From: Deltaproteobacteria bacterium
GTDB taxonomy: Bacteria > Desulfobacterota > Desulfarculia > Adiutricales > Adiutricaceae
Length of the DNA: 55,866 nucleotides
Direction of reading: 5' to 3'
Assembly (NCBI GenBank): GCA_031257535.1
Contig: JAIROO010000330.1
Span: forward strand, 1-55,866
The notes under the pieces are model-generated. The model was not told the DNA's origin. It saw only the letters and a list, made by a program, of their open reading frames with translations, and made no database searches. The position numbers and the translations under genes are program-made. Below, piece by piece: positions 4,284 to 36,217 of the stretch (within the stretch, counting starts at the first letter, position 1; every line of letters begins with the position of its first letter).

Positions 4284-5000
4284 ATGGCCGCAAGCTTTGG
4301 CTTTTTTATAAATCGCTGGCCCCGTTGGTTTAGCCTTTTGGCTAAGGTGGTCTTGTTTTTTAGCCTCTGGCTTTGGCCCACTTTGTTATTGGCTCTTGAT
4401 GACGCTATAGTCCAGCGAATGAAAGCCGAAGATGAATTATTCGCGTATGTTGAAAATACTATTGTTACTAATTGGCAAACATATCCACCTAATTATAAAT
4501 CACGACTAAAAACAGATCAAATAAAATGGGTGAATTATAAAAGAGACATAGAAGCTGAATATTATATGTTAAAAGGCCTTTCATTTAATGACGCATATAC
4601 ATATGTTACTGCGGTTCGTAATAACGAAATGATTAGAATTTTACCAGGACATGTGCAAGATAAATATGTAATAATAGATTTGGATCTTTTAACTAAAATA
4701 ATATTTAATAGTAAGTTAAATACGTTTAAGCCTGACCAAATCCCGCCTCAAGTTCAGACCCCGCCTCAAGCTCAAAACCCGCCTCCGCCTCGCCTCCCGA
4801 CAGCCTCGTTTCAAAATAGCCCTAATGAAACTATAACGACTTCCCGGCCAGCGCTAGATTCGGGGCAAGTAGAACCTTTGTCTTTGAGGCCTGGTGAGGC
4901 TGAAATTATCAGTAAGTTTAAAGCTATATGGACTTTTGTTATAGTAGTACTTATATCTGCCATGGTTTTATTACAATATTATAAGCCTAATACTCAATAA
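4284..5000 (+). CDS. Hypothetical exported/membrane-anchored protein with a Pro/Gln-rich linker and C-terminal TM segment
   Basis: 238-aa ORF with AAGAGG upstream of the ATG. It has an N-terminal hydrophobic segment (FSLLAKVVLFFSLWLWPTLLLAL), the tract PPQVQTPPQAQNPPPP, and a C-terminal hydrophobic anchor. An AT-rich block sits at about 4440-4740 inside the ORF. Confidence 0.5.
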   Translation: MAASFGFFINRWPRWFSLLAKVVLFFSLWLWPTLLLALDDAIVQRMKAEDELFAYVENTIVTNWQTYPPNYKSRLKTDQIKWVNYKRDIEAEYYMLKGLSFNDAYTYVTAVRNNEMIRILPGHVQDKYVIIDLDLLTKIIFNSKLNTFKPDQIPPQVQTPPQAQNPPPPRLPTASFQNSPNETITTSRPALDSGQVEPLSLRPGEAEIISKFKAIWTFVIVVLISAMVLLQYYKPNTQ

Positions 5001-5163: not shown

Positions 5164-6819
5164 TCATTTTTGTTGTAATCTATATGCAACTTTTTTTGAT
5201 ACATGTAAATAAAAAATTATACAAAATTCAATTACTAAAGTTAGTAAGCTTTCATATAAATTATTAATCATTGGTAATAAAAAAAACTCATTAGTTGAAA
5301 AAATAAAGTAAGTAAAAAATATTATATTTGATAGAAATGCTATATCATTAAATAATATAGATAATTTATTTGCTCTTAAAAACAGTATAAGTATCAAAAA
5401 ATATATTGCAAGGATATATAGAAAATAATTTTTAAGATAATTAATTTCAATATTGTTTTTTAACATCTCTAAAACTGTAGCTTCATCTATTTCATATAAA
5501 TCAATCGCTGCACTAACAGAATATAATAATCTGCAAATCATATAAAGAGATACAAATAATATAAGACAACCTGATTTAGGCTTTTCAGTCTTAATAGCGT
5601 CTTTTATATTATGTTTTTCTTTTACAACATTATTGTCCTTAACAAATTCCGTTTGTTCATCCGCCGACGCTTGTAGAAAATTTAATATTTTATTTAAATT
5701 ATCATTAGGTAATGACTTATCGCTTTGTGGATCATATTCTGGCTGAGGGGCCATAACTGGCTTGGGTTTAGGGGCTAACGTCTTTAAGACGTTTTGCTTC
5801 GCTAAAGGCTCTAAAGGCTCTAAAAGTTCTAAAGGCTCTAAAGGCGTTAAAGGCGGGGCCAGAGGAGGAGGGCTAACCGCTTTTAGGGGTTCTTTTTGGG
5901 TTTTAGCTGGGCTAATTATGGCTAAAAATTTCGCTACGCCTTGGATTCTTTCGCGCCTGTTCAATTTAAGGCTGCCTTCGATGGCCTTTAAAAAATCGGG
6001 TTTAAGAGCTAGTTTGTTTAACAAAGGCCAGATTTTGGCGAAGGGATCCGGCTGGTGTTCCATAACAGCCATTTGTCTATCTGGGGAGGGCGGAGGAACC
6101 TGGCCAGTTAGGCAGTAGAAAATAACCGCCCCTAAAGCGTAGATATCCGTCCAGGGTCCTTGGAAGGCGACGTTAGTCGAGTATTGCTCGATGGGCGAAA
6201 AGCCGGGCGTTAAGATCATGTTTAACGATTGGGTTTTGACGGCTAAAGCGTTTCTGGCCGCTCCAAAATCGATTAGCGTCTTTTGGCCGGTGGTTCGAAA
6301 AAATATGTTTTCCGGTTTTAGGTCGCGGTGTAAAAACCCTTTCGCGTGGACGGCTTGGAGCCCCTTAAGAATTTGGGGCAAAAAGTCCAGGACCTCGATT
6401 GGTGGCATAAGGCCTTTAGGACGTATGGCCAAGATGTCCGCTAAGGTTTGGCCTTCAAAAAAAGGCATGGCGTAATAGGCCGTCCCTAAGATTTCAAAAT
6501 AGTCGATAATCGGCACGATATTAGGGTGAGAGAACTTGGCGAGGATCTCGGCTTCTCGCAAGAAATCTAAAAGGCCTTCTTTAAATTGGTTAGGGCTCAC
6601 GCTGGCTTTGGGCGTGACTCCGTAACCCTCTTTATCCCTGTCCGCGGTATCTTGAGGAAAGTGTTCCTTAATAACGACCATTTTATTCGTTATGGTATCT
6701 AAAGCTTTATAAGTAACTCCAAAGCCGCCTTGACCTAAGACGCTTATAATTTGGTAGGCTTTAAGGGTAAAACCTTTGGGTAAGCAGAAATTAACGATAT
6801 TACCGTGTTTAGGCTTCAT
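5164..6819 (-). CDS. Hanks-type Ser/Thr protein kinase with a C-terminal polytopic membrane tail (paralog 2)
   Basis: 551-aa ORF with a TGA stop. Motifs GQGGFGVTYKA, VVIKEH, HRDLKPENIF, DFGAA, TPGFSPIEQ. The N-terminal ~300 aa clearly align with the kinase at 595-2169. The linker carries (EPL)n encoded by 9-nt repeats near 5805-5850. The tail from about 5164 to 5720 is AT-rich and hydrophobic. Confidence 0.9.
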   Translation of the reverse strand: MKPKHGNIVNFCLPKGFTLKAYQIISVLGQGGFGVTYKALDTITNKMVVIKEHFPQDTADRDKEGYGVTPKASVSPNQFKEGLLDFLREAEILAKFSHPNIVPIIDYFEILGTAYYAMPFFEGQTLADILAIRPKGLMPPIEVLDFLPQILKGLQAVHAKGFLHRDLKPENIFFRTTGQKTLIDFGAARNALAVKTQSLNMILTPGFSPIEQYSTNVAFQGPWTDIYALGAVIFYCLTGQVPPPSPDRQMAVMEHQPDPFAKIWPLLNKLALKPDFLKAIEGSLKLNRRERIQGVAKFLAIISPAKTQKEPLKAVSPPPLAPPLTPLEPLELLEPLEPLAKQNVLKTLAPKPKPVMAPQPEYDPQSDKSLPNDNLNKILNFLQASADEQTEFVKDNNVVKEKHNIKDAIKTEKPKSGCLILFVSLYMICRLLYSVSAAIDLYEIDEATVLEMLKNNIEINYLKNYFLYILAIYFLILILFLRANKLSILFNDIAFLSNIIFFTYFIFSTNEFFLLPMINNLYESLLTLVIEFCIIFYLHVSKKVAYRLQQK

Positions 6820-6929
6820 AATCTTTTTTAGAATAATTATTTTAAAATTTATATATTTCAGTAATTTATTATATTATTAATGATTAAATAGTTGATAAAT
6901 ATAAATTATTAATGCTTAACATTTGGTAG

Positions 6930-7748
6930 TTAATAAATATAATATATAATTACGCTATAATTATCATATTCTTGTTTAGCGGAAGATTTGGCTATAATTT
7001 CTTCTTCTAATGAATTAAGAATCTTAAAACGCTCATTATTTAAATTATCTAGGGCCGAAAAATCAAGGAGTTTGAGGGAGTTTTCCTCGATCAACTCCCA
7101 AAAACCATCGGTGACCAGAATAAGAGTATAGGGTTTGTCGGTTAGCTCATAATCGCCTAAAGTTGGCTTTGGGTAAGGCGAGTCTTGGCCTAAGGCCTTG
7201 GTTAAGACGTGGCGGTCAGGGTGCCCTCTAATTTCGGCGGCCTCGATTTCGCCTAAGGCCACCATCATCTGAGCCACGGTGTGATCTAAGGTCTGGACCA
7301 GAATTTTTTGATTTTTTAGAAGGTACAAGCGGGTGTCCCCTACGACCCCCCAGCGCAGGATATTATCCTTGACCGTGGCCACGGTCAAGGTGGAACTCAT
7401 AGAAGCTAAGCCTCTATTATTGTTTTTAGCGGACATTATAGCTTCATTAGCGTTTTTAAAAGAATTTAGAATAGTTTCATCACTATTTTCAAGGCCATTT
7501 AAAGTCGCTAAAGCTCCTATTATGGCTTTTCTTGAAGCCATGCGGCCCCCAGCGTGACCGCCTAACCCATCGGCCAAAGCCAAACCTGAGAAAGAGGGGG
7601 CTAAAGCCAGCCCAAAGGCATCCTGATTTTCTGAGCGCCCCCCGCGAGCGGACAAAGCTAAAATATCCCCGCCGCTAACTTCTGCGAACGTTGAGGCCCG
7701 CTCCCTGGCGGTTTCCGCTTCCCAGGAAAATGAGTAAAACAAGCCCAA
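6930..7748 (-). CDS. PP2C-family Ser/Thr phosphatase (cytoplasmic type)
   Basis: 272-aa ORF with a TTG start 5 nt downstream of AGGAGG. PP2C metal-binding motifs are present: LADGLGGHAGG and VTDGFWE. Confidence 0.85.
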   Translation of the reverse strand: MGLFYSFSWEAETARERASTFAEVSGGDILALSARGGRSENQDAFGLALAPSFSGLALADGLGGHAGGRMASRKAIIGALATLNGLENSDETILNSFKNANEAIMSAKNNNRGLASMSSTLTVATVKDNILRWGVVGDTRLYLLKNQKILVQTLDHTVAQMMVALGEIEAAEIRGHPDRHVLTKALGQDSPYPKPTLGDYELTDKPYTLILVTDGFWELIEENSLKLLDFSALDNLNNERFKILNSLEEEIIAKSSAKQEYDNYSVIIYYIY

Positions 7749-7899
7749 AAACCTCCTAAATTGAACTATATCACTATAGATATATTTTTATAAAACGCTT
7801 ATTAAATGAAAATACAGCAATAATTAATGTTATTTTGGTTAGTAAACCTTACTCTATCGACTTTAGCGTTAACAAAATTTTTTTTTCGATGAATAGATA

Positions 7900-9030
7900 T
7901 TAACATATGTAAAATATCAGCGATATAACTATAATAAATACTATGAAAAAAATAATACTTGATTTATCTTTAAATAAAAACATCCTAATATCATTATAAT
8001 AGGAAATTATAGTAGTCCAAATATTTTTGAGTCTACCTTTTAAACTTAAATCTTTTGGGTTAATAACGTTTTGTTTATTAATAGCTTCTGTTTTAAGACT
8101 TTTTGGCTTAATTTTTGATGGTTGTTCGGCAATTTCTATGCCTAAATATCTTCTTAATTCGGCCACCCCTTTAATTCGCCCTTTAACCTCTGGGCAAAGG
8201 CACCCCCTTAAGGCCCGCGCCCATATCGGCTTGAGCTTAGTTTCAACGGCCTGTAAAGTAGGCTCTAAGGGATCGAAGGTACCTTCAGTGGTGGCGATCA
8301 GCCGGGCAACCGAGTTGGGTAAGTCCCGCCCGGTCAAACAGTAAAGCAAAACCGCGCCCAAAGCGTAAATATCGGTCCACGGGCCCTGGGCAATGGCTGT
8401 TTGTAAGTACTGCTCGGGGGGGGCGAAGCCATGGGTCACAAATTGGTTTTGCATGTCCCCGCCCAAGATATCGCCGGCCGACCCAAAGTCGATTAAAATT
8501 GGGTTCAAGTCAGTTTGGATAAAGACATTTGAAGGTTTAATGTCGCGGTGCACGATCCCTCGGGCGTGGACGGCCTGCAGACCGTCTAAGATGGGCGTAA
8601 ACCACTTTTTTATCTCTTCTAGCGATTGGCCAGGCGATCGACTAAGGATCGTTTCCAAAGATTCGCCGGCCAAAAAAGGCATGACAAAATAAGCTGTCCC
8701 CAGGTCGCGGAAATAATTTTTAATCTTCACGATGTTGGCGTGGTTAAAATTGGTTAGAGTTTGAGCTTCTTTGAGAAAATGACCTAAACTTTGTTTAAAA
8801 TCAGCTGGACCCGCCACCTGGAGAGGAATAACGCGATTGTCTTGGCGCGTGACTAAGTTTAAGGGAAAATGCTCTTTAATAACGACCTTTAGATTTGTTT
8901 TTAGCTCAGTGGCTTTATAAGTTATGCCAAAACCGCCTTGACCCAAAACTTCTATGAGCTGATACGGGAACTTCGAAAAGGTATAGCCGCTCGGGAGGGC
9001 TTGGTTAGGGGGTTCTGGCGACAGGCTCAT
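7900..9030 (-). CDS. Hanks-type Ser/Thr protein kinase with a single C-terminal TM anchor (paralog 3)
   Basis: 376-aa ORF. Motifs GQGGFGITYKA, VVIKEH, HRDIKPSNVF, DFGSA, HGFAPPEQ. The C-terminus IIFFIVFIIVISLIFYIC is encoded in AT-rich DNA. Confidence 0.9.
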   Translation of the reverse strand: MSLSPEPPNQALPSGYTFSKFPYQLIEVLGQGGFGITYKATELKTNLKVVIKEHFPLNLVTRQDNRVIPLQVAGPADFKQSLGHFLKEAQTLTNFNHANIVKIKNYFRDLGTAYFVMPFLAGESLETILSRSPGQSLEEIKKWFTPILDGLQAVHARGIVHRDIKPSNVFIQTDLNPILIDFGSAGDILGGDMQNQFVTHGFAPPEQYLQTAIAQGPWTDIYALGAVLLYCLTGRDLPNSVARLIATTEGTFDPLEPTLQAVETKLKPIWARALRGCLCPEVKGRIKGVAELRRYLGIEIAEQPSKIKPKSLKTEAINKQNVINPKDLSLKGRLKNIWTTIISYYNDIRMFLFKDKSSIIFFIVFIIVISLIFYIC

Positions 9031-9078
9031 TATAGACGATCCGCGTTAAATTGGATTTGAATTTGGTTAAAAAGTTAG

Positions 9079-10197
9079 TTAATTAGTCGCCGGCGATTGG
9101 TCTGGCCTGGTCTCTATGGGCTCAGAGACGCTTTGATTTTTGGGTTCAGAAACGCTTTGATTTACGGGCTCAGAGACGCTTTGATTTGTGGGCTCAGAGA
9201 CGCTTGGCGGCGACAAGTTCTTGTCGGTTTGGTCTGAGGTAGACTCTTTGGAGGGATGGAAGACGTAGAGCCAGCCGAGGCCAAAAAGAATGGCGAGGAA
9301 TATAATTAGCCCAATCAGCCAAAAGCGCCGCGGGGAGTCAGGGATTGGGTCAAAAAAATCGGTGGAGTCGACCTTAGGCTCGTCAATTTGGGCCAATTGG
9401 ACGGTGACGTTGTCCGGTCCTCCGGCTTTAAGGGCCGCGGCCACTAGATTTTGGGCCTTGGCTTGAATAGAGGCCTTAGAGGTTAAGATGGATTTGACTA
9501 AGTCCTCGGAGACGGGCTCAGTTAGGCCGTCTGAGCATAAAAGAAACAGATCCCCTGGCTGACAATTCAAAGATTTGACGAAAATGGACTGGCTGTCGAC
9601 GTTACCCCCTAAGGATTGGGTAATGACGTTCCTTAACTCAAAATTTTTGGCTTCTTTGGGCGTCAGTTGGCCAGAGTCTATTAATTCTTGAACGTAAGAG
9701 TGATCTTTGGTTAAAAGCTCTAAAACCCCGTTCCTTAAACGATAGAGCCGACTGTCGCCAGCGTGAATGACAAAGGCCAAGTAGCCACTAAATAAAATAG
9801 CCACTAAGGTGGAGCCCATGCCCTCTAAATTAGGATCTTCCGTGGCTTTGCGCGTGACCTCTTGGTCGGCGGCCAAGAGAGCCTCTCTAAGGATAAGGCT
9901 AGGGTCTTCGAGGTTGGCCGCTTTCACGCGGCGTTGAAAGACGTCCACGGCGATTTTGCCCGCCAGGTCCCCCCCCACGTGACCGCCCATGCCGTCGGCG
10001 ACCACTAAAAGCTCCCCGGCCCGCGAGCTAAACCAACCAAAACTATCCTCGTTGTTAGTCCTGACCAACCCCGGATGGCTGGCCTGGGCGACGCGGAGGC
10101 GAGGAATAGCTATAGTCACTCTTTTGTTTTGGGAAGTTACGTTAAGGGTTTTCACCAACGTAACGGGCGACTCATTATGAAGCGTGGCTTGGGTCAT
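9079..10197 (-). CDS. Membrane-anchored PP2C Ser/Thr phosphatase with a repetitive C-terminal tail
   Basis: 372-aa ORF. Motifs VVADGMGGHVGG, LLCSDGL and GGPDNVTV, followed by the TM segment FWLIGLIIFLAILFGLGWLYVF and a tail with SVSEPxNQ repeats. The start overlaps the upstream FHA gene by 23 nt. Confidence 0.9.
   Translation of the reverse strand: MTQATLHNESPVTLVKTLNVTSQNKRVTIAIPRLRVAQASHPGLVRTNNEDSFGWFSSRAGELLVVADGMGGHVGGDLAGKIAVDVFQRRVKAANLEDPSLILREALLAADQEVTRKATEDPNLEGMGSTLVAILFSGYLAFVIHAGDSRLYRLRNGVLELLTKDHSYVQELIDSGQLTPKEAKNFELRNVITQSLGGNVDSQSIFVKSLNCQPGDLFLLCSDGLTEPVSEDLVKSILTSKASIQAKAQNLVAAALKAGGPDNVTVQLAQIDEPKVDSTDFFDPIPDSPRRFWLIGLIIFLAILFGLGWLYVFHPSKESTSDQTDKNLSPPSVSEPTNQSVSEPVNQSVSEPKNQSVSEPIETRPDQSPATN
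9118..9205. repeat. 24-nt tandem repeat (3 full units plus 1 partial) inside the PP2C 3' end
   Basis: Unit GGGCTCAGAGACGCTTTGATTTnn repeats head to tail at 9118, 9142, 9166 and 9190. It encodes (SVSEPxNQ)n on the minus strand. Confidence 0.9.
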
Positions 10198-10819
10198 TTT
10201 TCAAAGGGTCTTCTTTCGGCACGACGACCAAAACGAAAGCGTTCGAGCCTAAGCGTAAAGTATCGCCATGGTTGAGAGTAACTTTGTCGGAGATTTCCTG
10301 GCCATTGACCCAAGATCCATTGGAAGACATGCTATCGCCAATGGTAAATTTACCGTTTCGGTAGAGAATCACCGCGTGTTGGTCGGATAAAAGAGCGTCG
10401 TTGATCCGAATCGTCGAGTTAAGGCCCTTGCCAATAGTGTGTCGACCTTCCCGAAGGGGAAAAAACGCGCCTTGGGTCGACATGGTGTAGCTGACTAAAA
10501 AACCGGTTAAAGCCGGTAATTCCGAGCCAGCGATTTTGGTCCCTTTTCGATCAATAATCGTTTTTTTAGAAGTCGATTCGCTTAAACGGACCGTTTCTCG
10601 GATATCTGAGGGCGATTGTTGGGGGGAGGGGTTCGCGGATTTGACGACTAGCTCTCCACACCAGGGGCAAAACTCGGAGCCTTCGGACACAACATGACCA
10701 TTAGAGCAGCGGATAAAATTGCCATGAGTCGTCGGCGTCTGATCTTTACCACAATGTGGGCAGGTTTGCGCGCCAGGTGGAATGGGTTGAGCGCAATAAA
10801 CGCAATATTCGTCGGACAA
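10175..10819 (-). CDS. Zinc-ribbon plus FHA-domain protein
   Basis: 214-aa ORF. Two CxxC pairs (CVYCAQ...CPHCG and C...CPWCG) are followed by an FHA signature (HTIGKG...SDQHAVILYRNGKFTIGDSMSSNGSWVNG). Confidence 0.85.
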   Translation of the reverse strand: MSDEYCVYCAQPIPPGAQTCPHCGKDQTPTTHGNFIRCSNGHVVSEGSEFCPWCGELVVKSANPSPQQSPSDIRETVRLSESTSKKTIIDRKGTKIAGSELPALTGFLVSYTMSTQGAFFPLREGRHTIGKGLNSTIRINDALLSDQHAVILYRNGKFTIGDSMSSNGSWVNGQEISDKVTLNHGDTLRLGSNAFVLVVVPKEDPLKNDPSHAS

Positions 10820-10857
10820 TTTATTTCCTCATTTACTTAGGTAAGCTAAAAATCAGA

Positions 10858-12357
10858 CTATTTCCTAATCAACATGGCTCTAGCTGTTCCGAATTTTAGA
10901 ATATCCCCGATTTTTAAAGTCGTGAATTGACGAATTACCGTATCGTTAACCAAAGTTCCGTTTGTCGAGTTAAGATCTTTTATTTGACAGCCCAATTCGG
11001 TGACGTGAAATTCGGCATGACGACCGGAGACGGTGGCCACGTCAATGACGATATCGTTGGATTTATTGGCCCCTAAAGTGGTATGGCCAAACTTTAAGGG
11101 GTAGCGTTGATTAAACTCCATAAACTCCAAAATAAAAGGGCTAGTTTGAGTCGCGGGGAGGCGGACGGTTTGGCCGACTTCCCGATCGCCGCGGGTAGTG
11201 TTCCTCACGACTAAAGTGGGCGTGGTTTCCTTTAGCCTTTTTTTCCTTTTTAAGAATAAAATCAAAATAACGATAAAAATTAAGGCCGAGACGCCCGTGG
11301 CCACGACGAGGGCGGGATTGGCGCGATACTTGGCCACTAACCAGTTTTCTTCTGAGCCTGGCTTGGACTCGGGAGTTTTCCCAGCCTCGGGCGATTTTCC
11401 AGGCTCAGAGCCTGGCTCTGTCTCGGGCTCGGGCTCGGGAACTTTAACCAGGTTTTCTGGAACTTTAAGCTTTAACGGTTGGGTTATGACCTGGTCGTCA
11501 ACTCGGCGGATAAGGTTAGCGTCTATTTCTTTGGCCAAAGCTTCGTAACCGGTTAGCTCAAAGTTGATATCAAGTTTGACCGGCGGGATCGGTAAAGAGG
11601 ATTTGTCTTTCATGACGTCGTAAACGGCCATGGACAAAGACTCGGGGCCCTCGACCGCCCAAAAACGGCCATTGGTTTCAGAGGCCAGTTTTTCCATAAA
11701 CAGTCGAGGCCCTGGATCTCTATTTTGTTGCGATAGATAAATGGCTAAGATCCGGATATTATTGCCAGTCGCCGAGTTTAAAACGTCCACGGAACTATAG
11801 CCCGTCCCGTCGTCTTGGCCATCGGAGACAACCACCATAGTTCGGCGGCCAGGGATGTTTTTAAGTAGGTCAAAACCCGTTCGCAAGGCCTGATAAAATT
11901 CCGTTTTTGACCCTGATAACTGAAGCGCCCTTAAGGCTTGGGAAAATTCGCCTCTTTGGGTGGAAAAACCAAACGGAATTTGGACCGTGTCGTTAAAGGC
12001 GATTAAAGCTAATTGGTCGTCGCGATCTAAGAGGGCGGCGAGTCGGCTTAGGCTGTCTTTGGCCGCGTTCAAATTGTTCAAAGTCAGGCTTTTACTGGTG
12101 TCTAAGACTATTAGGACGCTATAGCGGTCGTCGTCGGGCGAGCTGACGGTGGTCAGCGAAGTGGCCGGAAACTCTTGGTCATTGGGGAGGCTTAAGAACC
12201 ATCGCTCTTTAGTCTCTTCGCGCGTTGGAAAGTCCAAGGTCAAAGAAACTTTAGGCCAGAGCGCGGTCTCAAGTTTTTTGACGGACAGACCTTGGGCCGA
12301 CGCGGCTTGGGTCCACAAAAACAAGATAAAAAATAAGGCGACGACCTTTTTGGCCAT
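10858..12357 (-). CDS. Secreted/membrane vWA-domain protein with a C-terminal cytoplasmic FHA domain
   Basis: 499-aa ORF with a signal peptide (VVALFFILFLWTQAASA), a vWA MIDAS motif DTSKS in VLIVLDTSKSL, the TM segment ALVVATGVSALIFIVILILF, and a C-terminal FHA domain (TTLGANKSNDIVID...SGRHAEF...DLNSTNGTLVN). TAG stop. Confidence 0.85.
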   Translation of the reverse strand: MAKKVVALFFILFLWTQAASAQGLSVKKLETALWPKVSLTLDFPTREETKERWFLSLPNDQEFPATSLTTVSSPDDDRYSVLIVLDTSKSLTLNNLNAAKDSLSRLAALLDRDDQLALIAFNDTVQIPFGFSTQRGEFSQALRALQLSGSKTEFYQALRTGFDLLKNIPGRRTMVVVSDGQDDGTGYSSVDVLNSATGNNIRILAIYLSQQNRDPGPRLFMEKLASETNGRFWAVEGPESLSMAVYDVMKDKSSLPIPPVKLDINFELTGYEALAKEIDANLIRRVDDQVITQPLKLKVPENLVKVPEPEPETEPGSEPGKSPEAGKTPESKPGSEENWLVAKYRANPALVVATGVSALIFIVILILFLKRKKRLKETTPTLVVRNTTRGDREVGQTVRLPATQTSPFILEFMEFNQRYPLKFGHTTLGANKSNDIVIDVATVSGRHAEFHVTELGCQIKDLNSTNGTLVNDTVIRQFTTLKIGDILKFGTARAMLIRK

Positions 12358-12480
12358 GATGAACCTCGAGTAGTTGTCTTAAAATCTATTTATTCGTTAA
12401 GGGCGAAAATTCGCTCCTTTTTTTTGGTTTTACTATTAATTTTGGAATGTTATATAATAAAAAATATCCAAAAACTAATT

Positions 12481-14082
12481 TTATTGGTTAAAAGGGATGG
12501 AATTTTTCCGTAAAAAATTTATAATGCTTTGGGAGCTTAAGGCAATATTGTATTGAAGCGTTCTAAAGAGAGCGTCCGTTTTTATTCCACCTAACGTGTT
12601 TACGCCCACGACTAAGCCTCGGTTATTTAAAAGAGGGCCTCCACTGTTGCCGGGAAAAGTTTGGGCTGAATGAAAAATAATTGTCCCGGAATAGATTTTA
12701 TCTACCTTGTTAATATGACCAGCTTGAAAAACGGGTTCCGGCGATTGAAAAATGTTATCTGGGTCGCTAGCTCTGTTATACAATCCTGGGTAACCCCATA
12801 AAAAAACGTCATCCCCATTTTTGAAGTTGGGGCTGAAGGCTAGGGCCTTCGCTAAAGGTGAGGGAGAAAGCTTAATTACCGCGAAATCATTTAGAGAGTT
12901 AATATTATGTTCGAAGGCGATAACTTGGCCTTTTACCAGTGATAACTTGTGATTATTTATTAGGCATAAATTGTTTATATTTACAGCTACATGTGCGTTA
13001 GTAAATATTAAATCATGACCAATAAAAAAACCTGTTCCTTCCCTTGAGGCATTTTGAGTATTTTCTCGACATGAAATTATAACCGTAGCGTTTTTAGCTA
13101 TTTCTTTGGCCTCTGTCGTCGGAGTCGAAGGGATTACGGTCGCCGGAAGAGGCACGGGGGCCTGGGGCAAAGGGACCTTTTGGCCAGGGGCGACTAGGCC
13201 CGGGGTCGGTTGAACGGGCGGGGGACTGACCTCTGGGGGAGGCGGGGCCTCAACTCGCGGTTTGGCCGGCGAACTCGACTCTTTTCGGGGAGGTTTAGAC
13301 TGGACCGTCTCGGGTTTTTTCGAGGGCTCGGTCATCAACTGGACCAGGCCGACCACGGTCAAAGCCAGACAGGCTAGAGCGAAATATTTGGATAAATGAT
13401 TCCAAAATAATGTTTTAAAGTGAAAATAATAGCCTTTAGGCTTACTGTTTTGGGCCAAAACTAAAAGAGATTGTAAATCAGTCTGATATTGACCAAACCT
13501 TATGTTGTTTTTCAGGGTGACTAAACTTTTTTGGATCTGGCGGCCGTCGACAAAGGAGCCATTTTTTGAGGACGCGTCGGTTAAACGCCAAGCTCCATTA
13601 ACGTCTAGGCTTAAAGTAGCGTGATTTTGGGAAACGCTGGGGTGGTTTAAGACCAGATCGCTACTCTCGCTCCGACCAATAGTAAATTGTTTGACGATTG
13701 ACCTAGGCGGGTCCGGCCCAGGCGGGAGCTTGGTCCGACCAGTTAAAATGGCGCTGGCCTCGTAACGTAGGCCCGCTATGTAAATAATATCCGTAACTTT
13801 AATGGTCGCGGTTTTAATTAAGTTGCTAGGATCGCCTACGGCCGTGCCATTCGCCGAGTTTAGGTCCGTTAATAAGTACTCGCCCGGGCCGATTGGGCTT
13901 AAGTAAGCGTGGCGAGCGGAGACGCGGCGGTCGTTAATATAAAAATCCGCCTCCTTCCCTCGACCGATCAAGACGTCGGCGGAGGGATCGCCGGCTTGGG
14001 TCGAGAAAGAGGCTCCGCAAGCTGAGCAAAACAGCACTCCATTAGCTGAGAGCTTATGGCATCTTGGGCAGATCAAAGGCAA
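12481..14082 (-). CDS. Zinc-ribbon, 2x FHA, TM and trypsin-like serine protease fusion protein
   Basis: 533-aa ORF with a TTG start after GGGAG. It has an N-terminal CPRC...CSAC and two FHA signatures (LIGRGKEADFYI...SARHAYL...DLNSANGT and FTIGRSESSDLVL...SQNHATL...DASSKNGSFVDG). These are followed by a TM segment, a Pro-rich linker, and a chymotrypsin-fold triad context (FTNAHV, NDFAVIKL, GNSGGPLL). Confidence 0.85.
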   Translation of the reverse strand: MPLICPRCHKLSANGVLFCSACGASFSTQAGDPSADVLIGRGKEADFYINDRRVSARHAYLSPIGPGEYLLTDLNSANGTAVGDPSNLIKTATIKVTDIIYIAGLRYEASAILTGRTKLPPGPDPPRSIVKQFTIGRSESSDLVLNHPSVSQNHATLSLDVNGAWRLTDASSKNGSFVDGRQIQKSLVTLKNNIRFGQYQTDLQSLLVLAQNSKPKGYYFHFKTLFWNHLSKYFALACLALTVVGLVQLMTEPSKKPETVQSKPPRKESSSPAKPRVEAPPPPEVSPPPVQPTPGLVAPGQKVPLPQAPVPLPATVIPSTPTTEAKEIAKNATVIISCRENTQNASREGTGFFIGHDLIFTNAHVAVNINNLCLINNHKLSLVKGQVIAFEHNINSLNDFAVIKLSPSPLAKALAFSPNFKNGDDVFLWGYPGLYNRASDPDNIFQSPEPVFQAGHINKVDKIYSGTIIFHSAQTFPGNSGGPLLNNRGLVVGVNTLGGIKTDALFRTLQYNIALSSQSIINFLRKNSIPFNQ

Positions 14083-14872
14083 ACTCCCAAAAAAAAAGAT
14101 TTTGCTCTAAAAAAAACGAGCTAACCTAAAAAAAATTCAAGCTAACCTAAAAAGACCAGGGGGCTTAAAAAGCGGCCATGGCCTAAAATAAAATTTGACG
14201 AATAACTTTAGGGTATTATAGCACAGTTTTTTTGGGATAAATTCTTAAGAGTTAGGAAGGGATAAAGCGATTCTTAAAGTCGCGAGGGCCTTATAAGCCT
14301 TAACCACAACCCTTTAAGTTCGCCTTTGGCCTTACCTCTAATATATGGTCCCACTCGCGGCGGAATAATTTCTATAAGTCTAAAATATGAAACAAAAAAC
14401 GACCGAGATTCGTTAACCGCAAGGTCTTTAAGCTCGGTTTTTTTGGGCCGGTCAATTGACTATAGTTTTATAATAATTTAACTTACGTAATTATAAATAA
14501 TGTTTTTATGATATTTTAATAACAAATAAATAATTGGCGTTAAGCTAAAAATTATTTTTCATTTGTTAGGTAAAAAAATACAAGTTAATATAAATTCGCT
14601 CGTTGCGATTACGTCCAGAAAGACCCTAAAAAAAGCCACTGTCAAAACGTAACTCTTCCCCTGGTTGTTTTAAACGGCGGCCAAAACGAGCCGTGGGTCT
14701 TTTTCGGCCGCGGATTTCGGCTCGCGACAAAAACGTTAAAAGTTTCTCCTTGAAGTCTAACGGGCAAAGTTTTTGGTCTAAAGGATTTTTGTTAGTCTCC
14801 CTCTTTTGGTCCTTACGTTTTATGTTTTTTGGTTAAGCCACTTTTTGGCTTTTTGTTTGCCGTTATGGACCG

Positions 14873-17800
14873 CTAGTCGGTCTTGGACTTGAGTTCGCGC
14901 TCGAGTTCGAGTTCGTACTCTTTTAGCGTATCTTGAAAGTCTACGAACTCGAAATGTGGATAATAGTCATAATTTTCGGCCTCGGAGGCCGTCTGGGGTT
15001 CGTCCTTAAGACACTCGACGTTAATACCCAGGGCGTTAAGGATTTTAAAAGGTAACATAACACTTTCTGGTAAACTATTTATTTGGAAAGTTTTTATATT
15101 ATATATCTTTAAAATATTCATGAGCCGACCGATAGGGTCGTCGCTTTTACTGGACAAAAATTCTTTCAAGTTATAAGCCGCGCCATAGGCTGAAAGGGCC
15201 AAGATCGCCTCTTCGCCGAAGAATTGAGCCCCATTTTTAGCTAAGCTAGTGGTAGGTCGCTTGGATACTAAGGAGTTGGAGAAATAACCGTGGGCTTGGA
15301 AGATCTCATCTACGCCTGGGTTGAGTTTCGTCATATGTACAACCCCCATCGTAACTTCGTGGTCAAATTTTTCGCCAGTTCGTCCGTCGAACAACGCGCT
15401 CTGGCCAGTGGGGGAAAGATTAGCTTTTTTGAAAAGGTCAAAAATAGCCGATTCGTCGGCTCCGTCAAACGGGGGCGAGACAAACCTAAGACCGCGTCTT
15501 TCGCGCGCGGCCCTCTCCATAAGCTCTAGGTCGCTTAAATTGGCGAATTCGCGCTCGAAGTCTTGGTCGCCTAAGACGCTTTTTAAATAAGCTTTTAGAG
15601 ATTGGGGATCGTTCGCCTCGATTAAATTCCCTATTTTTTGGCCAATAGCGTAACTCGCGAAACCTAAATGGGCTTCCAAGGTTAGGCCAACGTTTAGGCC
15701 CTCGGCGATCAATAAAGGACTTAAAACCACGTCGACTGGGGTCCCGTCCTCAAGAAATGGCATGTCCTCGACGGGAAGAATCCGCGAGACCGTTCCCAAG
15801 TCGCCGTGGCGGCTGGCCAGGATGTCGCCCACGGCTAGTTTCTGTTTATTGGCTAAAAGGACTTTCGCGATCAAGTTGAGGCCGACGGGTAACTGAAAGT
15901 TCATTTGGAGCTTTTTTAGAGCGCTTTGAAATCTAACGTCGATTTTTATTAGAGCTATTTGGTAGTCGCGGACTATAGCCTTGACCTTAGACTTAAGGGT
16001 TCCTTTTTCGTTCCCTTTAAAGTCTACCTCCGCCCAAGCCGCGATAGGCGTATTTTTAATAGCCTCTAAAGTGACGGAAGAAAGCGGTTCTAAGAAAGGC
16101 GATGACCCATTTTGGCCGGTAATTGGGGCCTTTAAGGGCTGACCCAAAATAATTCGGGTCAGAGAGGCGAGGGCGTCGTTTTTAACGGTTTGGAGGTTAT
16201 TTTCATGTTCTTCCTTAAGGAGAGTAATTTCGCTGGCCTTAAAACTTCGAATCCCGTTTAAAGCGTCATCTGAACTATCATACGTTTGGATATCTTTAGG
16301 TCTACAAAAAATTTGGGCATCGACCACCACGCCTTTTTGCCCAACTGGGACCTTTAAAGAATTGTCTTCTACGTTATTATGAAACTTTTTACCAAAAATA
16401 GTATTTTTAAGTTTTATTTCAGGCGTTGTTATGGTTCTGGGAGGAAAAAAGATCCGCCAGACCAGGGAGTCGTCGGTTTTGACCATCGTCCCCACCTTAA
16501 TGACTCCTGAGCTATCAGCGTTGGGCTCAGGTTCATCATACCGCGTAAAATCTTCGTAATAGCCGGACATATAATCAATCGGCTCAAGACGACTTCTTTC
16601 CCTTAACTCGTTAACCTCAAGGCGGAACGAAGTAAAAATATCTTCTTGAACTAGACGTTCTGAGACTATGATTGAGTCCTTAAAGTTGTAGCCTTCCCAG
16701 TTCATAAAGGCGACCAGGACGTTTTGACCTAAGGCTAGCTCGCCATTTTTCGTGGCTGGACCGTCGGCGATGACTTGATCTTTGGCGACGAACTCCAAAG
16801 GTTGGACCAGCGGTTTTTGATTAAAGCAAGTTCCTTGGTTAGAGCGTTTAAATTTGGTCAGCTTTTGGACGGTAATATTTTTGATTTCAGCGTTATTCGA
16901 ATGGGATAAAGGCCTAATGACGATTAAGTCGGCGTCGACGAATTCGACTATCCCATCGTGACGAGCTAAGACGACCGCCCCTGTGTCTTTAGCGATTTTC
17001 GACTCCAGGCCCGTTCCCACGAGAGGAGCTTCGGGCCGCAGTAAGGTCGTGGCCTTAAGACTCGCGTTTAGGCCCTTTATCGCTTGGGTGGGCTCGTTAT
17101 GCTCCAAAAAGGGGATTAAAGAGGCGCTCGCCGAGAAATTTTGAGTGGGGGCCACTTCCAGGTATTTTAGGCTAGACGCCGCGACTAAGACCGTCTCGCC
17201 CTTAAACGACAAGGAACTAGTTGACTTAAAAAATGACCATTTTTATCCAAAGGCGCGTTACTTAAGGCGATTGGCGACTCGGACTCCTCTAAGAGCGATA
17301 GATACGCGACTTTAAGCGTGGGGACTCCATTTTCGACTAGTCGAAAGGGAGTCTCGATAAAGCCGTCCTGGGTAATTCTCGCGTAGGCGGCCAAAGAAAC
17401 CACGTGGCCAAAATTAGGCCCTAGTGGGGAATCGAGTGGGCAAACGCGGCCCAAGTGAGAGGGATGGCCGTTTACCCAGGCGAAATTGGTTAATTTGTAA
17501 GGTTCTAAAGCCGGGGACTCAAATTTCCCGAGTTCTGGGAGCGTGGGTTTTAAGGTTGAAAGTCGTCGATGGTGGGCGATTATGGCCAGAGGGTTATTCT
17601 GATCTATCGGTTGGAACAAAGAGCTGGTCGCGAATAAATTTTTGAGCGACAACCAAAAATGATTGGGCGCGAATATCTCTTCGAAGCTTAAGCTTAAGTT
17701 TGAGTTTGATGATTTATTCAGCCGTCGCTTTAAGGTTTTGGCGAAGCGTTTAAGAGCCAGCCGACACCGTTTATCTATAAGCTCGCCCAAGGTTAAGACC

Positions 17801-19188
17801 TTAAAGGCTCGCAAGTGGTTAAGATCGTCGCCTTGATAGTCGAGGTCTTTTAAGCGTTTAAGCTCTTTGACGACGGCTAAGACGTCCGCTCGGCTTAAAA
17901 AGGTCTGGTCCGATTCGCCTTCGATCGAAGATTTTACGCGGTAATTGAGAGCTTTTCGACCAGCGGGGGAAAGGTCGTAATTATTGGCGTTAAAGAACAT
18001 TTGATGAAGTATCGGCGTAACCTGTAATAAGTTTTTCGGTCGGGCGCCCCGAATTTTAAGGCCTAAGCGTTTTAAAGCCTCGTATTGGCTCATAAGGTCT
18101 TCTTTGGCCACAGAGTCTCTAATGAAGGAGTCCCCATTGGTTAAGTTAACGCGCAAAAGGTGAATTTCCGAAACTCCCGCGGCTAAAGCGCTAAAGTATA
18201 TTTTTTCAGTAAACTCCTCGTTTAAATCCAAAATAAGCGCCCCGGTATTATCGCCAAAAACCGGCCTCGCCGCGTAGCGACCATAGAAATGAAAAGCCTC
18301 AATGGCGATCTTTTCCTCTCGCTCGACTTTCCAAGTCCTCTGGTCGCCGTTAAGGTTAAGGTCGCCCTTTTCCTCACTCGACGCGTTTTGGGGATTGAAG
18401 AGGACGTCGAAAAAGCTCTGGTCGATAAAAAGGGTGGGCACGTCGTCTCTTTTGACTTCATTAGGCTTAAAATAGACAATGTCTTTTTCGTAGAACTCGT
18501 TTAAAAGTTCTTGGGGGCTATAACCAAAAGCCAGTAACAAAGTCGCGGCCGAAACCTTCAGCCGGTGTCTAATTCGCGCGTTGATAAAACCACTTTTATC
18601 CAGCTCAAACGTTAGCCTTTCCCCTCGATTGGGGACGATTCTGGCCAAAAATTCAATTTTGTTCGGATGGCCGCTTTTTTGGTGGTTACGAAAGAAGTAA
18701 ACGCCCGGGGCGCGGCGGAGTTGGGCGTCGAAGATCTTTTCCACGCCGTTTATGGCCAAGGTCCCGTTCTCGGTCAGAAGCGGGAAATGGGCGAGATAGA
18801 TCTCCTTTTCTTGGACTTCAATAAGTTTTTTCATCCCGGATTCGTTGACCTTTTCGTAGCTCTCAATGGCGACTTTAAGTTTTAAAGGCGCCTCATAAGT
18901 TAAGCCCGTGGCCAGGCACTCGTCGAGGTCGTGGGTCGGCTAGCCAAAGGAATAGCTAAGGTATTGACATTTGGCGAGCTTAGAAGCGTTAACCAAGGGA
19001 AAAAAGACATTGAAAAGGGCTTCTAACCCGAAATCCTCTCGCGAAAGCGGCGGGACGTCCTTTTGCAGGAATCGCTCGTAGGAGAGTCTTTGGGCGTCAA
19101 TCAAATTAGGCGCCTCAAAAAACGCTTGGGTCCCCCCAAAATTTTGGCGAACGCGAAAACGAAGAATTGAAGACATTAAATTTCCCAA
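14873..19188 (-). pseudogene. Second, strongly diverged rpoB-like gene, disrupted by one in-frame TAG and one frameshift
   Basis: Three collinear minus-strand ORFs (18940-19188, about 17185-18936, 14873-17212) align end to end with the rpoB homolog at 19508-23662. Example matches: [18 protein letters not shown] vs [18 protein letters not shown], and [36 protein letters not shown] vs [36 protein letters not shown]. The first two pieces share a frame and are separated only by the TAG at 18937-18939. The frame changes near 17201-17206 (VPCRL|KGETVLV). Catalytic-region motifs are degenerate (NASLKA for NMQRQA, NGAQFFGEEA for [10 protein letters not shown]). Confidence 0.8.
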
Positions 19189-36201: not shown

Positions 36202-36217
36202 GGCCAATTTAAAGCCA

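Follow-up and report, generated by a model that had tools for sequence, protein, structure and literature searches.

A conserved kinase, phosphatase, and FHA-protein cassette with predicted periplasmic vWA and protease domains in a Deltaproteobacteria bacterium

We analyzed a 55,866-nt window of deltaproteobacterial DNA (the whole stretch under study) and found that seven of its genes form an expanded version of a conserved five-gene cassette, whose core order is protease, vWA-TM-FHA protein, ZnR-FHA protein, PP2C, and kinase (Table 1). To this core the present genome adds a second PP2C, two more multi-TM kinases, and orfX, additions that would let the system take several inputs. The FHA, kinase, and PP2C domains are all cytoplasmic by predicted topology, and the vWA domain, with its MIDAS motif, and the HtrA-like protease domain are predicted to be periplasmic. 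Modules of FHA proteins, Ser/Thr kinases, PP2Cs, and vWA proteins are already known as a kind. We propose that the proteins of this one build a single phospho-threonine switch spanning the inner membrane, a reading that we consider about evenly balanced between right and wrong.

Table 1. Features of the cassette and its surroundings (window coordinates; numbers after Pfam names are bit scores).
Feature	Coordinates	Strand	Remarks
Third Ser/Thr kinase, 524 aa	595-2169	-	Pfam Pkinase; multi-TM C-terminal tail
IS element, 1955 bp	2301-4255	n/a	DDE_Tnp_1 transposase 2454-4142; 25% GC
orfX, small membrane protein	4284-5000	+	no Pfam family
Seven-gene cassette	5164-14082	-	all genes on the minus strand
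Ser/Thr kinase, 551 aa	5164-6819	-	Pfam Pkinase (121.8)
Soluble PP2C, 272 aa	6930-7748	-	Pfam PP2C_2 (44.9)
Tail-anchored Ser/Thr kinase, 376 aa	7900-9030	-	Pfam Pkinase (130.3)
Membrane (long) PP2C	9079-10197	-	Pfam PP2C_2 (62.6)
Soluble double zinc-ribbon-FHA (ZnR-FHA) protein, 214 aa	10175-10819	-	Pfam Zn_ribbon_3/DZR and FHA (59.2)
Signal peptide-vWA-Pro/Glu-rich linker-TM-cytoplasmic linker-FHA protein	10858-12357	-	Pfam VWA (58.5) and FHA (58.8), with alignments
ZnR-FHA-FHA-TM-S1 protease, HtrA-like, without PDZ	12481-14082	-	533 aa as ORF; Pfam FHA x2 (102.7), Trypsin_2 (76.5)
Upstream intergenic region	14083-14872	-	790 nt, AT-rich

The seven open reading frames (ORFs) lie exactly where a sequence-only reading of this DNA had placed them. 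A Pfam search of the ORFs gave matches above the gathering cut-offs for every one, upholding the domains that had been assigned, and catalytic and metal-binding motifs are intact throughout the cassette. The topology, with vWA and protease domains outside and the other domains inside, also agrees with that proposal; it was derived from hydropathy and from direct reading of the vWA signal peptide, and is kept in orthologs.

The true start of the protease is likely a TTG at 14076, which sits 7 nt after a GGGAG; the protein read from there still contains the N-terminal zinc ribbon. Two FHA domains follow, with the motif residues G40-R41/S55/H58/N78 and G136-R137/S151/H154/N174, then a single TM at ~229-253 by hydropathy. 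The Gly-Arg of the second FHA domain is invariant in the aligned orthologs, and across all orthologs Gly-Arg is consistently retained in the FHA domains of the protease alone. The catalytic triad (H364/D399/S480) is complete and unchanged in four orthologs. The closest PDB relatives are Mtb HtrA1, HhoA, and MarP/Rv3671c. An AlphaFold model of the protein was of low confidence (pLDDT 54.8), and the K/R charges around the TM are ambiguous, with three before it and five after. Because the protein has no signal peptide and zinc-ribbon and FHA domains are cytoplasmic in nature, we took the protease domain to be periplasmic.

The vWA-FHA protein begins with what reads directly as a Sec-type signal (MAKKVVALFFILFLWTQAASA/QG), and hydropathy gives it one TM at ~345-373. 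Its MIDAS residues (D86-x-S88-x-S90, T152, and D179) were invariant first in seven and then in nine orthologs. A T397-V-R-L motif lies in the cytoplasmic juxtamembrane linker and recurs in five of nine orthologs, the close ones. Alignment to OdhI places Ala430 where the canonical FHA Arg would be, and this phosphate-binding position is Ala or Thr in all nine orthologs. The closest PDB relatives of the vWA domain are 8s05_A (387 aa, E 4e-9), which we read as ArnB-like because its partner chain, 8s05_C, resembles ArnA, and VWA2 (5a8j); the FHA domain matches ArnA (5a8i).

The linker of the ZnR-FHA protein carries two threonine motifs, R74-E-T76-V-R-L79 and K86-T87-I-I. In a nine-way alignment, R-x-T-(I/V/M)-x-(L/I/M) and (K/R)-T-(I/V)-(I/V) were found in every ortholog. 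The classical FHA ligand has the form pT-x-x-hydrophobic. Aligned to the FhaA Arg, the Arg position of this FHA domain holds Lys131; close relatives have K, Q, or S, and the Arg has been lost in the clade. The cassette's four FHA domains are thus spread over three proteins, with canonical Gly-Arg in just two, both of the protease, and the earlier count of three phospho-threonine readers was overstated.

The long PP2C, whose gene shares with that of the ZnR-FHA protein the 23-nt overlap reported previously and located here at 10175-10197, has a cytoplasmic phosphatase domain, a TM at ~289-316, and a short extracytoplasmic tail containing NQSVSEP repeats. Hydropathy gives one real TM, which is kept in six orthologs; the topology is the same as that of PstP, and the NCBIfam Stp1/IreP model scored 230.1 bits against a cut-off of 230. 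The soluble PP2C has orthologs of 272-276 aa with 48-50% identity at two other loci (L002 and L084), and orthologs at these loci also share the C-terminal tail anchor of the 376-aa kinase, which has all catalytic motifs. In the 551-aa kinase a Pro-rich linker leads into an AT-rich C-terminal domain with ~4 TM.

The unit is wider than these seven genes: the third kinase and orfX belong to it, and the boundary drawn earlier, which omitted orfX and treated this kinase as a mere neighbor, was too narrow. That kinase had been described as a paralog separated from the rest by an IS alone. The paralogy holds (45% identity to the 551-aa kinase, with homologous C-terminal tails, E 7e-6), but orfX also lies in between. 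Encoding a signal or N-terminal TM, a ~110-aa domain, a Pro-rich linker, and a C-terminal TM, orfX gave no match in the Pfam search, yet homologs in L084 (two copies) and L002 match it in relative placement and orientation, and the third kinase fills the slot that in L084 is taken by the extra kinases after the orfX copies. orfX is convergent with the end of the cassette and was divergent from the third kinase before the IS inserted. The IS, bounded by 33-nt terminal inverted repeats (2301-2333 and 4223-4255, 91% complementary), splits this divergent intergenic region; it interrupts the unit and is no working part of it. A degenerate, split second rpoB copy adjoins the cluster.

The neighborhood check set beforehand showed that the gene order extends beyond this window: it was found in at least 10 other contigs (syntenic core loci L001, L002, L003, L004, L084, L085/L170, L086, L171, L172, and L173) with protein identities of 25-57%, GC contents of 41-65%, and unrelated flanking genes. 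An order that recurs at such identities and GC contents is therefore that of a selected cassette rather than a chance pile-up. Together with the domain calls, this supports the earlier view of a self-contained module as opposed to generic signaling. The IS and the degenerate rpoB near the cluster could suggest a chance neighborhood or, in a symbiont genome rich in pseudogenes and IS elements, the remains of a decaying locus, and Ser/Thr kinase, PP2C, and FHA genes are common and often neighbors. However, the nine ORFs are all undamaged, their catalytic motifs are complete, and specific, rare architectures keep a constant order at at least 10 loci, down to 25-45% identity. Synteny and motif conservation effectively refute this explanation, which we give almost no credence. 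More distant FHA-trypsin fusions of other phyla likewise adjoin kinase and FHA genes, so the kinase-FHA-protease link recurs independently.

The cassette is rare, with ~13 protein clusters among 1.84 billion representatives, and is known from about a dozen contigs, presumed to be from gut metagenomes. Named relatives of the vWA-FHA protein and of the window's RpoB come from 'Candidatus Adiutrix' or Deltaproteobacteria MAGs, and one copy lies on a contig binned as Bulleidia. This distribution could fit a gut-symbiont device directed at a host or partner, in which the vWA domain would bind a surface ligand, the protease would process it, and the kinases would report contact. The Bulleidia-binned contig fits sharing inside one habitat, and adhesion is a classical function of vWA/integrin-I domains whose MIDAS is complete. 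In a diderm cell, however, both domains, tethered to the inner membrane, would face the periplasm and not the cell surface, and no secretion system genes were seen beside any copy. We find such a role very unlikely.

In the phospho-threonine switch that we propose, the membrane kinases would phosphorylate Thr-x-x-(L/I/M) motifs, namely T76 and T87 of the ZnR-FHA protein and T397 of the vWA-FHA protein. The protease would dock on these phospho-threonines via its FHA pair, the system's only fully canonical FHA domains, and docking would set its periplasmic domain beside the periplasmic vWA receptor. It might then cut the receptor, the receptor's bound ligand, or something nearby, for instance orfX or the tail of the PP2C. 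The PstP-like anchored PP2C and the soluble PP2C would remove the phosphate marks and reset the switch, and the ZnR-FHA protein may act as a soluble adaptor or competitor in the manner of GarA or ArnA. Like the earlier reading, we favor the view that the FHA pair may gate proteolysis. The restriction of the vWA-FHA threonine motif to five of nine orthologs and the missing canonical Arg in two of the four FHA domains count against the switch.

A phospho-dependent FHA/vWA complex has a precedent in ArnA-ArnB of Sulfolobus acidocaldarius, likewise a zinc-finger-FHA and vWA pair, which acts in motility repression under Ser/Thr kinase and phosphatase control (PMC6509490). ArnB, however, is cytoplasmic and lacks FHA and TM, whereas here an exported vWA domain is joined by a TM to an FHA domain; the archaeal pair has no protease partner and uses PP2A rather than PP2C as eraser, and the present bacterium has no archaellum. 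The P. aeruginosa H1-T6SS pathway PpkA-PppA-Fha1 likewise links an extracytoplasmic vWA domain, a precedent for a periplasmic sensor on a T6SS kinase, across the membrane to a Hanks kinase, with a PP2C as eraser and Fha1 as the FHA reader driving assembly of a membrane complex (PMC3224232). In PpkA the vWA domain is fused to the kinase, whereas here a separate protein carries it, fused to FHA; T6SS genes were not seen near the cassette, and TagH/VI_FHA scored 52 bits against a cut-off of 120. Deinococcus radiodurans DRA0331-DRA0334 is likewise an operon of vWA, TM Ser/Thr kinase, stand-alone FHA protein, and PP2C (bioRxiv 10.64898/2026.01.23.701218), but the FHA fusion there is with the PP2C (KAPP-like) and not with the vWA or a protease, a protease is absent, and, as far as the available text of that preprint goes, vWA export is not reported.

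Like the S1C proteases DegS, MarP/Rv3671c, and Mtb HtrA1, the cassette's protease would carry a periplasmic chymotrypsin-fold triad domain on an N-terminal membrane anchor, but it has no PDZ and places a regulatory zinc ribbon and two FHA domains across the membrane in the cytoplasm. Its control would be phospho-dependent and inside-out, as opposed to control through peptide binding in the periplasm. The ZnR-FHA protein resembles GarA/OdhI, which are among its best PDB matches, in being a small soluble FHA protein with conserved Thr residues in the linker that precedes its FHA domain. It differs in its N-terminal double zinc ribbon, in a motif of R-x-T-V-x-L rather than ETTS, and in the FHA Arg to Lys change in this genome, and no metabolic enzyme partner was evident.

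The same switch logic might instead serve envelope growth or division, in which case the HtrA-like protease would process a factor of the wall or envelope. The cast parallels the actinobacterial locus fhaA-fhaB-pstP-rodA-pbpA-pknA-pknB (PMC6554272) in its two FHA proteins, anchored and tailed PP2C, and at least two membrane kinases, which are in tandem; the best NCBIfam and PDB relatives of the FHA domains are FhaB/FipA, FhaA, GarA, and OdhI, with FhaA, FhaB, and GarA closest in sequence; and MarP/Rv3671c, one of the relatives of the cassette's protease, is a membrane-anchored envelope protease. However, no rodA, pbpA, or PASTA domain occurs in or adjoining any copy, with vWA and protease ectodomains present instead, and the NCBIfam equivalog cut-offs for PknB, FhaB, and MarP were all missed widely. 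The cassette is also rare and patchy, in contrast to the phylum-wide actinobacterial locus and unlike a core division locus. On balance we regard this role as unlikely, though it deserves some weight.

The label 'TerY-P type' attached earlier did not survive. TerY-P systems comprise a TerY-like vWA protein, a PP2C, and a kinase with a C-terminal ZnR or OB fold (PMC11090510, which credits the type to Anantharaman et al. 2012 and its role in defense to Gao et al. 2020). Both share vWA, PP2C, and Ser/Thr kinase together and have zinc ribbons, but here the vWA protein is exported and anchored and has no PADLOC match, the kinases end in TMs, the zinc ribbons are on FHA proteins (ZnR-FHA matched TerY_C only weakly and below threshold, 19.8 bits against 28.4), and three FHA proteins and a protease are added. 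A TerY-P-like conflict or anti-phage module, with the triad as sensor-switch and the protease as effector, perhaps sensing envelope damage or phage adsorption, nevertheless has points in its favor. TerY-P-like triads are reported to be stand-alone defense systems (PMC11090510), the kinases score high with defense kinase models, mad6 and PD-T4-6 among them, and the cassette looks mobile: flanks differ at every locus, the window contains an IS, and the neighbors are IS1/rve transposases, AAA_21 genes, and a type IIG-like methyltransferase at L171 and methyltransferase/HNH genes at L089. Against this, the kinase matches reflect generic Pkinase similarity, and the kinases lack the defining C-terminal fold; ZnR-FHA, like vWA-FHA, has no PADLOC match, and the PP2Cs match PDC-M21C only. 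TerY is cytoplasmic, whereas the vWA and protease domains here are predicted to be extracytoplasmic. At most loci, moreover, the cassette is flanked by housekeeping genes (rpoB here, rpoD at L001, a PCRF/RF-1-domain peptide chain release factor gene at L003, and a GH94 gene at L085). We consider a defense role improbable.

Minus-strand terminator-like sites were absent from every intergenic gap within the cassette, and from gene spacing alone we infer that its genes would be co-transcribed. The region upstream of the protease gene is likely the cassette promoter region, and contains a sigma-70-like match, by consensus only, at 14519-14490.

The seven minus-strand genes that a sequence-only reading had taken as one dense Ser/Thr signalling module are intact open reading frames with exactly the coordinates it gave, and all of its domain calls are matched in Pfam, each above gathering cut-offs. 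The 23-nt overlap that it described between the gene for the ZnR-FHA protein (ZnR, zinc ribbon) and that for the long PP2C is likewise genuine. The remaining intergenic gaps inside the cassette measure 38-151 nt, and a terminator scan found no minus-strand terminator-like sites within them; judged from sequence, both features would fit co-transcription. An AT-rich gap of 790 nt lies upstream of the first cassette gene, which encodes the protease. Terminator-like sites in the promoter/terminator scan (15 versus 14.2 expected) were uninformative, the enrichment of promoter-like matches is explained by the AT-richness of the region alone, and Rfam and tRNA scans gave no match in or near the cluster.

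Features of the cassette and its surroundings in the window (Pfam names for the cassette genes)
Feature	Position	Strand	Length	Matches and remarks
ZnR-FHA-FHA-TM-protease	12481-14082	-	533 aa	FHA (two), Trypsin_2
vWA-TM-FHA	10858-12357	-	499 aa	VWA, FHA
ZnR-FHA	10175-10819	-	214 aa	zinc ribbons, FHA
Long PP2C	9079-10197	-	372 aa	PP2C
Tail-anchored kinase	7900-9030	-	376 aa	Pkinase
Soluble PP2C	6930-7748	-	272 aa	PP2C
Multi-TM kinase	5164-6819	-	551 aa	Pkinase
orfX	4284-5000	+		
IS	2301-4255		1955 bp	DDE_Tnp_1 transposase; 25% GC
IS inverted repeats	2301-2333 and 4223-4255		33 nt	91% complementary
Kinase 3 (third kinase paralog)	595-2169	-		
AT-rich kinase tails	5164-5900 and 595-1300			GC about 0.31
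Intact rpoB	19508-23662			1498 bits
Split rpoB	14873-18834	-		overlapping ORFs 17185-18834 and 14873-17212
HpsG and neighbour	33718-37126	+		
Skewed 2-kb bin	38001-40000			AT skew +0.20

Among 5.8 billion proteins, only three close homologs of the protease were found, and the vWA-FHA protein has seven. Searched exhaustively with HMMER, 1.84 billion representatives yielded approximately 13 clusters with the FHA-TM-protease architecture (E <1e-40, counted at 50% identity). Gene-neighbourhood comparison bore out the arrangement read in the window: the order protease, vWA-FHA, ZnR-FHA and TM-anchored PP2C is retained in six contigs from other genomes or metagenomes (L001, L002, L003, L084, L085, and L086), where kinases and a second PP2C follow in variable order. 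The five-gene core, which includes a Ser/Thr kinase, is present in the contexts retrieved from the HMMER hits as well (L170, identical to the L085 contig, L171, L172, and L173). Because this order is kept while cassette proteins are 25-57% identical to those of the window, the loci span 41-65% GC, and the genes flanking the core differ at every locus, we regard the core as a conserved and probably mobile cassette, of which the window holds an expanded version. That the genes lie together by chance is contradicted by the synteny and is excluded.

The core was also found on a 6.2-kb contig of 49% GC (L004, CAVLCT010000116.1) binned as Bulleidia sp. (Firmicutes), which points either to mis-binning or to horizontal transfer among organisms sharing a habitat. 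Of the core, four genes are seen there, and the PP2C among them shares 40% identity with the window PP2C (phmmer E 2e-62). When GTDB species-representative contigs were scanned with the protease alignment, no close relative besides this contig was found, and the other 79 loci matched in generic FHA or S1 parts only. Searching metagenome contigs with the vWA-FHA alignment gave generic FHA matches and one distant full-length match, at a locus with the layout STK-vWA-PP2C-STK and without the protease (L090).

Two related loci have distinctive surroundings. In L171 (ENA ERZ27271727), the neighbours of the cassette are IS1/rve transposases, a type IIG-like N6 methyltransferase and two AAA_21 fragments, and in L089 (ENA ERZ25068262) two Trypsin-FHA genes are accompanied by a vWA gene, a MotA/ExbB gene and methyltransferase/HNH genes. 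Such surroundings partly resemble a defence island, in a small sample of two loci.

At the kinase end of the window cassette lies orfX, whose product has a signal or TM segment, a domain of about 110 residues, a Pro-rich linker and a C-terminal TM. No Pfam family matched it even at E up to 5, which also leaves a by-eye impression of likeness to DUF1311/LprI unsupported, and a single-sequence AlphaFold2 model of its ectodomain was too poor for fold assignment (pLDDT 50.4). Homologs of orfX occur in L084 in two copies (15517-16302 and 18444-19157) and in L002 (9934-10635), in each case at the kinase end, encoded on the opposite strand and convergent with the cassette end; both L084 copies are divergent from an extra multi-TM kinase. 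In the window, an IS with GC far below its surroundings occupies exactly the divergent gap between orfX and kinase 3. Since this gap matches the divergent layout of L084, we count kinase 3 and orfX as parts of the locus and the IS as a later insertion. The insertion point is 28 nt upstream of the orfX start, and the IS may disturb or replace the promoters of both genes.

Based on hydropathy and on a Sec-type signal in the vWA protein, the vWA and protease domains are predicted to lie outside and every FHA, kinase and PP2C domain inside, and the topologies of the window proteins were found again in orthologs. In the vWA protein, the signal peptide is followed by the vWA domain and then a TM, and the vWA holds a complete MIDAS (D86-x-S88-x-S90, T152, D179) that is invariant in nine orthologs. 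A cytoplasmic, ArnB/TerY-like vWA was rejected on the strength of the export signal and of exactly one TM before the FHA domain in nine out of nine orthologs. The Gly loop, catalytic Lys, HRD and DFG motifs are present in each of the three kinases, as is an invariant Thr in the activation segment. Both PP2Cs, as read from their sequences, carry the NED/NQD, DGxGGH, DG and DN metal-binding motifs; the long PP2C is a borderline pass for the NCBIfam Stp1/IreP family (NF033484; 230.1 bits, cut-off 230), and the soluble one falls below it (133 bits). The long PP2C also has a TM, followed by a short outside tail that contains repeats. One kinase ends in a tail anchor and the other two in mutually homologous, AT-rich domains of about four TM (E 7e-6; no Pfam family matched), with a GC content well below that of the remaining cluster (0.45-0.49). 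The equivalent long kinase in the Adiutrix contig L085 has an FGE-sulfatase domain in place of the multi-TM tail, and the sensor end of this kinase has therefore been exchanged between lineages.

The protease more likely starts at a TTG at 14076, because GGGAG sits 7 nt upstream, and its N-terminal CPRC...CSAC zinc ribbon is kept with either start. Its catalytic triad (H364/D399/S480) is invariant across the four closest orthologs and aligned to the catalytic motifs of M. tuberculosis HtrA1, its Trypsin_2 score in Pfam is 76.5 bits, and its closest solved relatives in the PDB are HtrA1, HhoA, MarP/Rv3671c and human HTRA1/2. It thus has the His-Asp-Ser triad and chymotrypsin fold in common with HtrA/DegP (S1C) proteases, but those carry one or two C-terminal PDZ domains, whereas Pfam found none here. 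The S1C equivalogs of NCBIfam were missed by a wide margin (HhoA/HtrA, 41 versus 450 bits; degP_htrA_DO, 38 versus 416), as was the MarP family (NF033740, 64 bits versus a cut-off of 250); MarP has a multi-TM N-terminal anchor, in contrast to the single TM of the cassette protease, which is preceded by the zinc ribbon and FHA domains. An AlphaFold2 model from a four-sequence alignment had a mean pLDDT of 54.8, with the second protease barrel below 35.

Both protease FHA domains retain the Gly-Arg (R41 in FHA1, R137 in FHA2), as do the orthologs examined, including distant single-FHA members, and both also retain the Ser-x-x-His and Asn-Gly signature. By sequence, the signature of a canonical, predicted pThr-binding FHA domain is full in the two protease domains and fails at the Arg position in the vWA-FHA and ZnR-FHA proteins. 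The vWA-FHA protein has Ala430 at the position of the OdhI Arg (A or T in 9/9 orthologs), and the ZnR-FHA protein has Lys131 at that of the FhaA Arg, where close relatives have K, Q or S and only the distant L004, L171 and L172 have Arg. Reading an upstream "EGR" as the "GR" Arg of the ZnR-FHA protein was rejected, as the 13-residue spacing to Ser-x-x-His favours Lys131 and the HMMER alignment to FhaA also puts Lys131 at this position. The classical FHA ligand has the form pT-x-x-hydrophobic. Two linker motifs of the ZnR-FHA protein, R-x-T-(I/V/M)-x-(L/I/M) (T76 here) and (K/R)-T-(I/V)-(I/V) (T87 here), are present in all nine orthologs, and the juxtamembrane cytoplasmic linker of the vWA-FHA protein has (K/R)-T-V-(R/K)-(L/I/M) (T397 here) in the five closest orthologs.

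Taken together, the cassette genes very probably constitute one membrane-spanning phospho-signalling unit. A specific recruitment mechanism, in which the protease FHA pair docks on phospho-Thr marks, is a tentative proposal that leans towards doubtful, and on unit and mechanism combined our confidence is evenly divided. Drawing on components observed to be intact and conserved and on the predicted topology, the wiring we infer is that the membrane kinases would write phospho-Thr marks on the ZnR-FHA protein and on the vWA-FHA tail, and the protease, which has the only canonical FHA readers, would dock on them. Docking would place its periplasmic HtrA-like domain beside the periplasmic vWA receptor, where its substrate could be the receptor, the receptor's ligand, the PP2C tail or orfX; the switch would be reset by the PP2Cs, and the ZnR-FHA protein may be a GarA/ArnA-like adaptor or competitor. 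The kinase-FHA-protease link is independently supported by distant FHA-trypsin fusions in other phyla that adjoin kinase and FHA genes (L087, L088, L089). It is possible, though we think it unlikely, that the cassette performs "inside-out" regulated proteolysis, in which Hanks kinases would mark a soluble adaptor and a periplasmic MIDAS receptor on their tails, these cytoplasmic pThr marks, read by the FHA pair, would set the time and place of periplasmic cutting by a bitopic, HtrA-like protease, and FHA domains would take the regulatory role of PDZ, acting across the membrane. If true, this would be a mechanism not yet described in bacteria.

The distant FHA-FHA-trypsin fusions of L087 (Solirubrobacterales, an actinobacterial MAG) and L088 (an untyped metagenome contig) are 613-656 aa long and directly adjoin a Ser/Thr kinase, in L087 together with a small FHA protein. 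Neither a vWA nor a PP2C gene lies beside them, and the arrangement may represent a simpler relative of the cassette.

The label "TerY-P type" given by the sequence-only reading did not hold. Adjacent, same-strand genes for vWA, PP2C and kinase (Pfam VWA, PP2C_2, Pkinase) match TerY-P in triad composition only: its vWA is TerY-like and cytoplasmic, whereas the cassette vWA has a Sec-type signal and a TM. The TerY-P kinase carries a C-terminal fusion, either an OB fold or a zinc ribbon (PMC11090510); here all three kinases end in TM without a zinc-ribbon or OB match in Pfam, and the zinc ribbons sit on the FHA proteins. A TerY-P-like defence module is nonetheless the most serious alternative, in view of the triad composition (PMC11090510), the mobile look and the defence-like flanks of L171 and L089. 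Against it stand the extracytoplasmic vWA and protease, the kinases without such fusions, and flanks that are mostly housekeeping; in PADLOC, no model matched the specific vWA-FHA and ZnR-FHA proteins, and the similarity seen was of a generic kinase, PP2C and protease kind only.

The ArnA/ArnB pair of Sulfolobus (PMC6509490) joins a zinc-finger-FHA protein to a vWA protein under the control of Ser/Thr phosphorylation, which may also apply to the cassette, and the 214-aa ZnR-FHA architecture matches ArnA; the closest solved relative of the vWA is 8s05_A (PDB), which we read as ArnB-like, and ArnA was not among the PDB matches of the FHA domain of the ZnR-FHA protein. However, ArnB is a soluble cytoplasmic vWA whose C-terminal region is phosphorylated and binds ArnA, whereas the cassette vWA is predicted to be periplasmic and its C-terminal region consists of a TM and an FHA domain. 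In the T6SS pathway PpkA/PppA/Fha1 of P. aeruginosa (PMC3224232) the periplasmic vWA is on the kinase, in the cassette on a non-kinase protein; the cassette FHA proteins score 38-52 bits against a VI_FHA (TagH type) cut-off of 120, and no T6SS genes were found among the window neighbours examined or in related loci. PASTA kinases (PknB/Stk1, NF033483), which carry extracellular PASTA repeats, were not matched either (99-134 versus 450 bits; no PASTA match). The nearest characterised analogues of the cassette are ArnA/ArnB, the TerY-P triad, PpkA/PppA/Fha1, the actinobacterial PstP locus (PMC6554272), the Deinococcus DRA0331-0334 operon and membrane-anchored HtrA-type proteases, and the cassette may work like them through a pThr-dependent assembly around a vWA protein. 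Since defining features of each were checked and not found, we place the cassette in none of them. By analogy, a role in envelope growth, as at the actinobacterial PstP/PknB/FhaA-B locus, is an alternative that has the same cast of proteins in its favour, but RodA, PbpA and PASTA are missing here.

What is new is that vWA-TM-FHA and ZnR-FHA-FHA-TM-S1 protease fusions exist and are obligatorily paired; a literature search found no paper on either fusion. FHA/kinase/PP2C modules are among the least understood in bacterial signalling, with outputs seldom evident from sequence. This cassette encodes its own output, a protease in which the only regulatory domains to be recognised are a pair of canonical FHA domains, across the membrane from the catalytic part. 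Should the proposed wiring be true, it would offer a compact, genetically separable system of five core genes, with defined candidate phospho-sites (T76/T87 and T397) and reader residues (R41, R137), as a model for control of extracytoplasmic proteolysis by Ser/Thr phosphorylation, and might reveal bacterial vWA/MIDAS receptor signalling. The analysis also defines a small protein family, adds orfX as a conserved uncharacterised partner, and cautions that not every vWA, PP2C and kinase neighbourhood deserves the TerY-P label. Its immediate impact is moderate, because the cassette is rare, occurs only in uncultured organisms and has an inferred mechanism.

The intact RpoB of the window is only 64% identical to its best matches, from Deltaproteobacteria MAGs, and shares 59% with "Ca. 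Adiutrix intracellularis" and 53% with Syntrophobacter; the cassette proteins have homologs under the label Deltaproteobacteria or "Ca. Adiutrix sp." The window therefore derives from a deep relative of the Adiutrix lineage. This taxonomy, and nothing else, suggests a role in symbiosis.

Directly downstream of the intact rpoB, in the usual position of rpoC, two overlapping ORFs together make up a second, divergent rpoB. Some 100 residues are missing from its N terminus, the two parts score 294 and 542 bits against rpoB cut-offs of 801-896, and its GC content is lower than that of the intact copy; from its sequence, it looks like a decaying tandem duplicate. Elsewhere in the window, the glycyl-radical (2S)-3-sulfopropanediol dehydratase HpsG (1387 bits; Desulfovibrio-type equivalog cut-off 1000) is encoded next to a gene whose best match is the HpsG activase HpsH (327 bits, below the cut-off of 430), a putative pair that points to organosulfonate metabolism in the source organism. 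AT skew stands out in one 2-kb bin, compared with about 0.1 or less (absolute) elsewhere, and this bin covers minus-strand ORFs adjoining an ABC-transporter ATPase gene.
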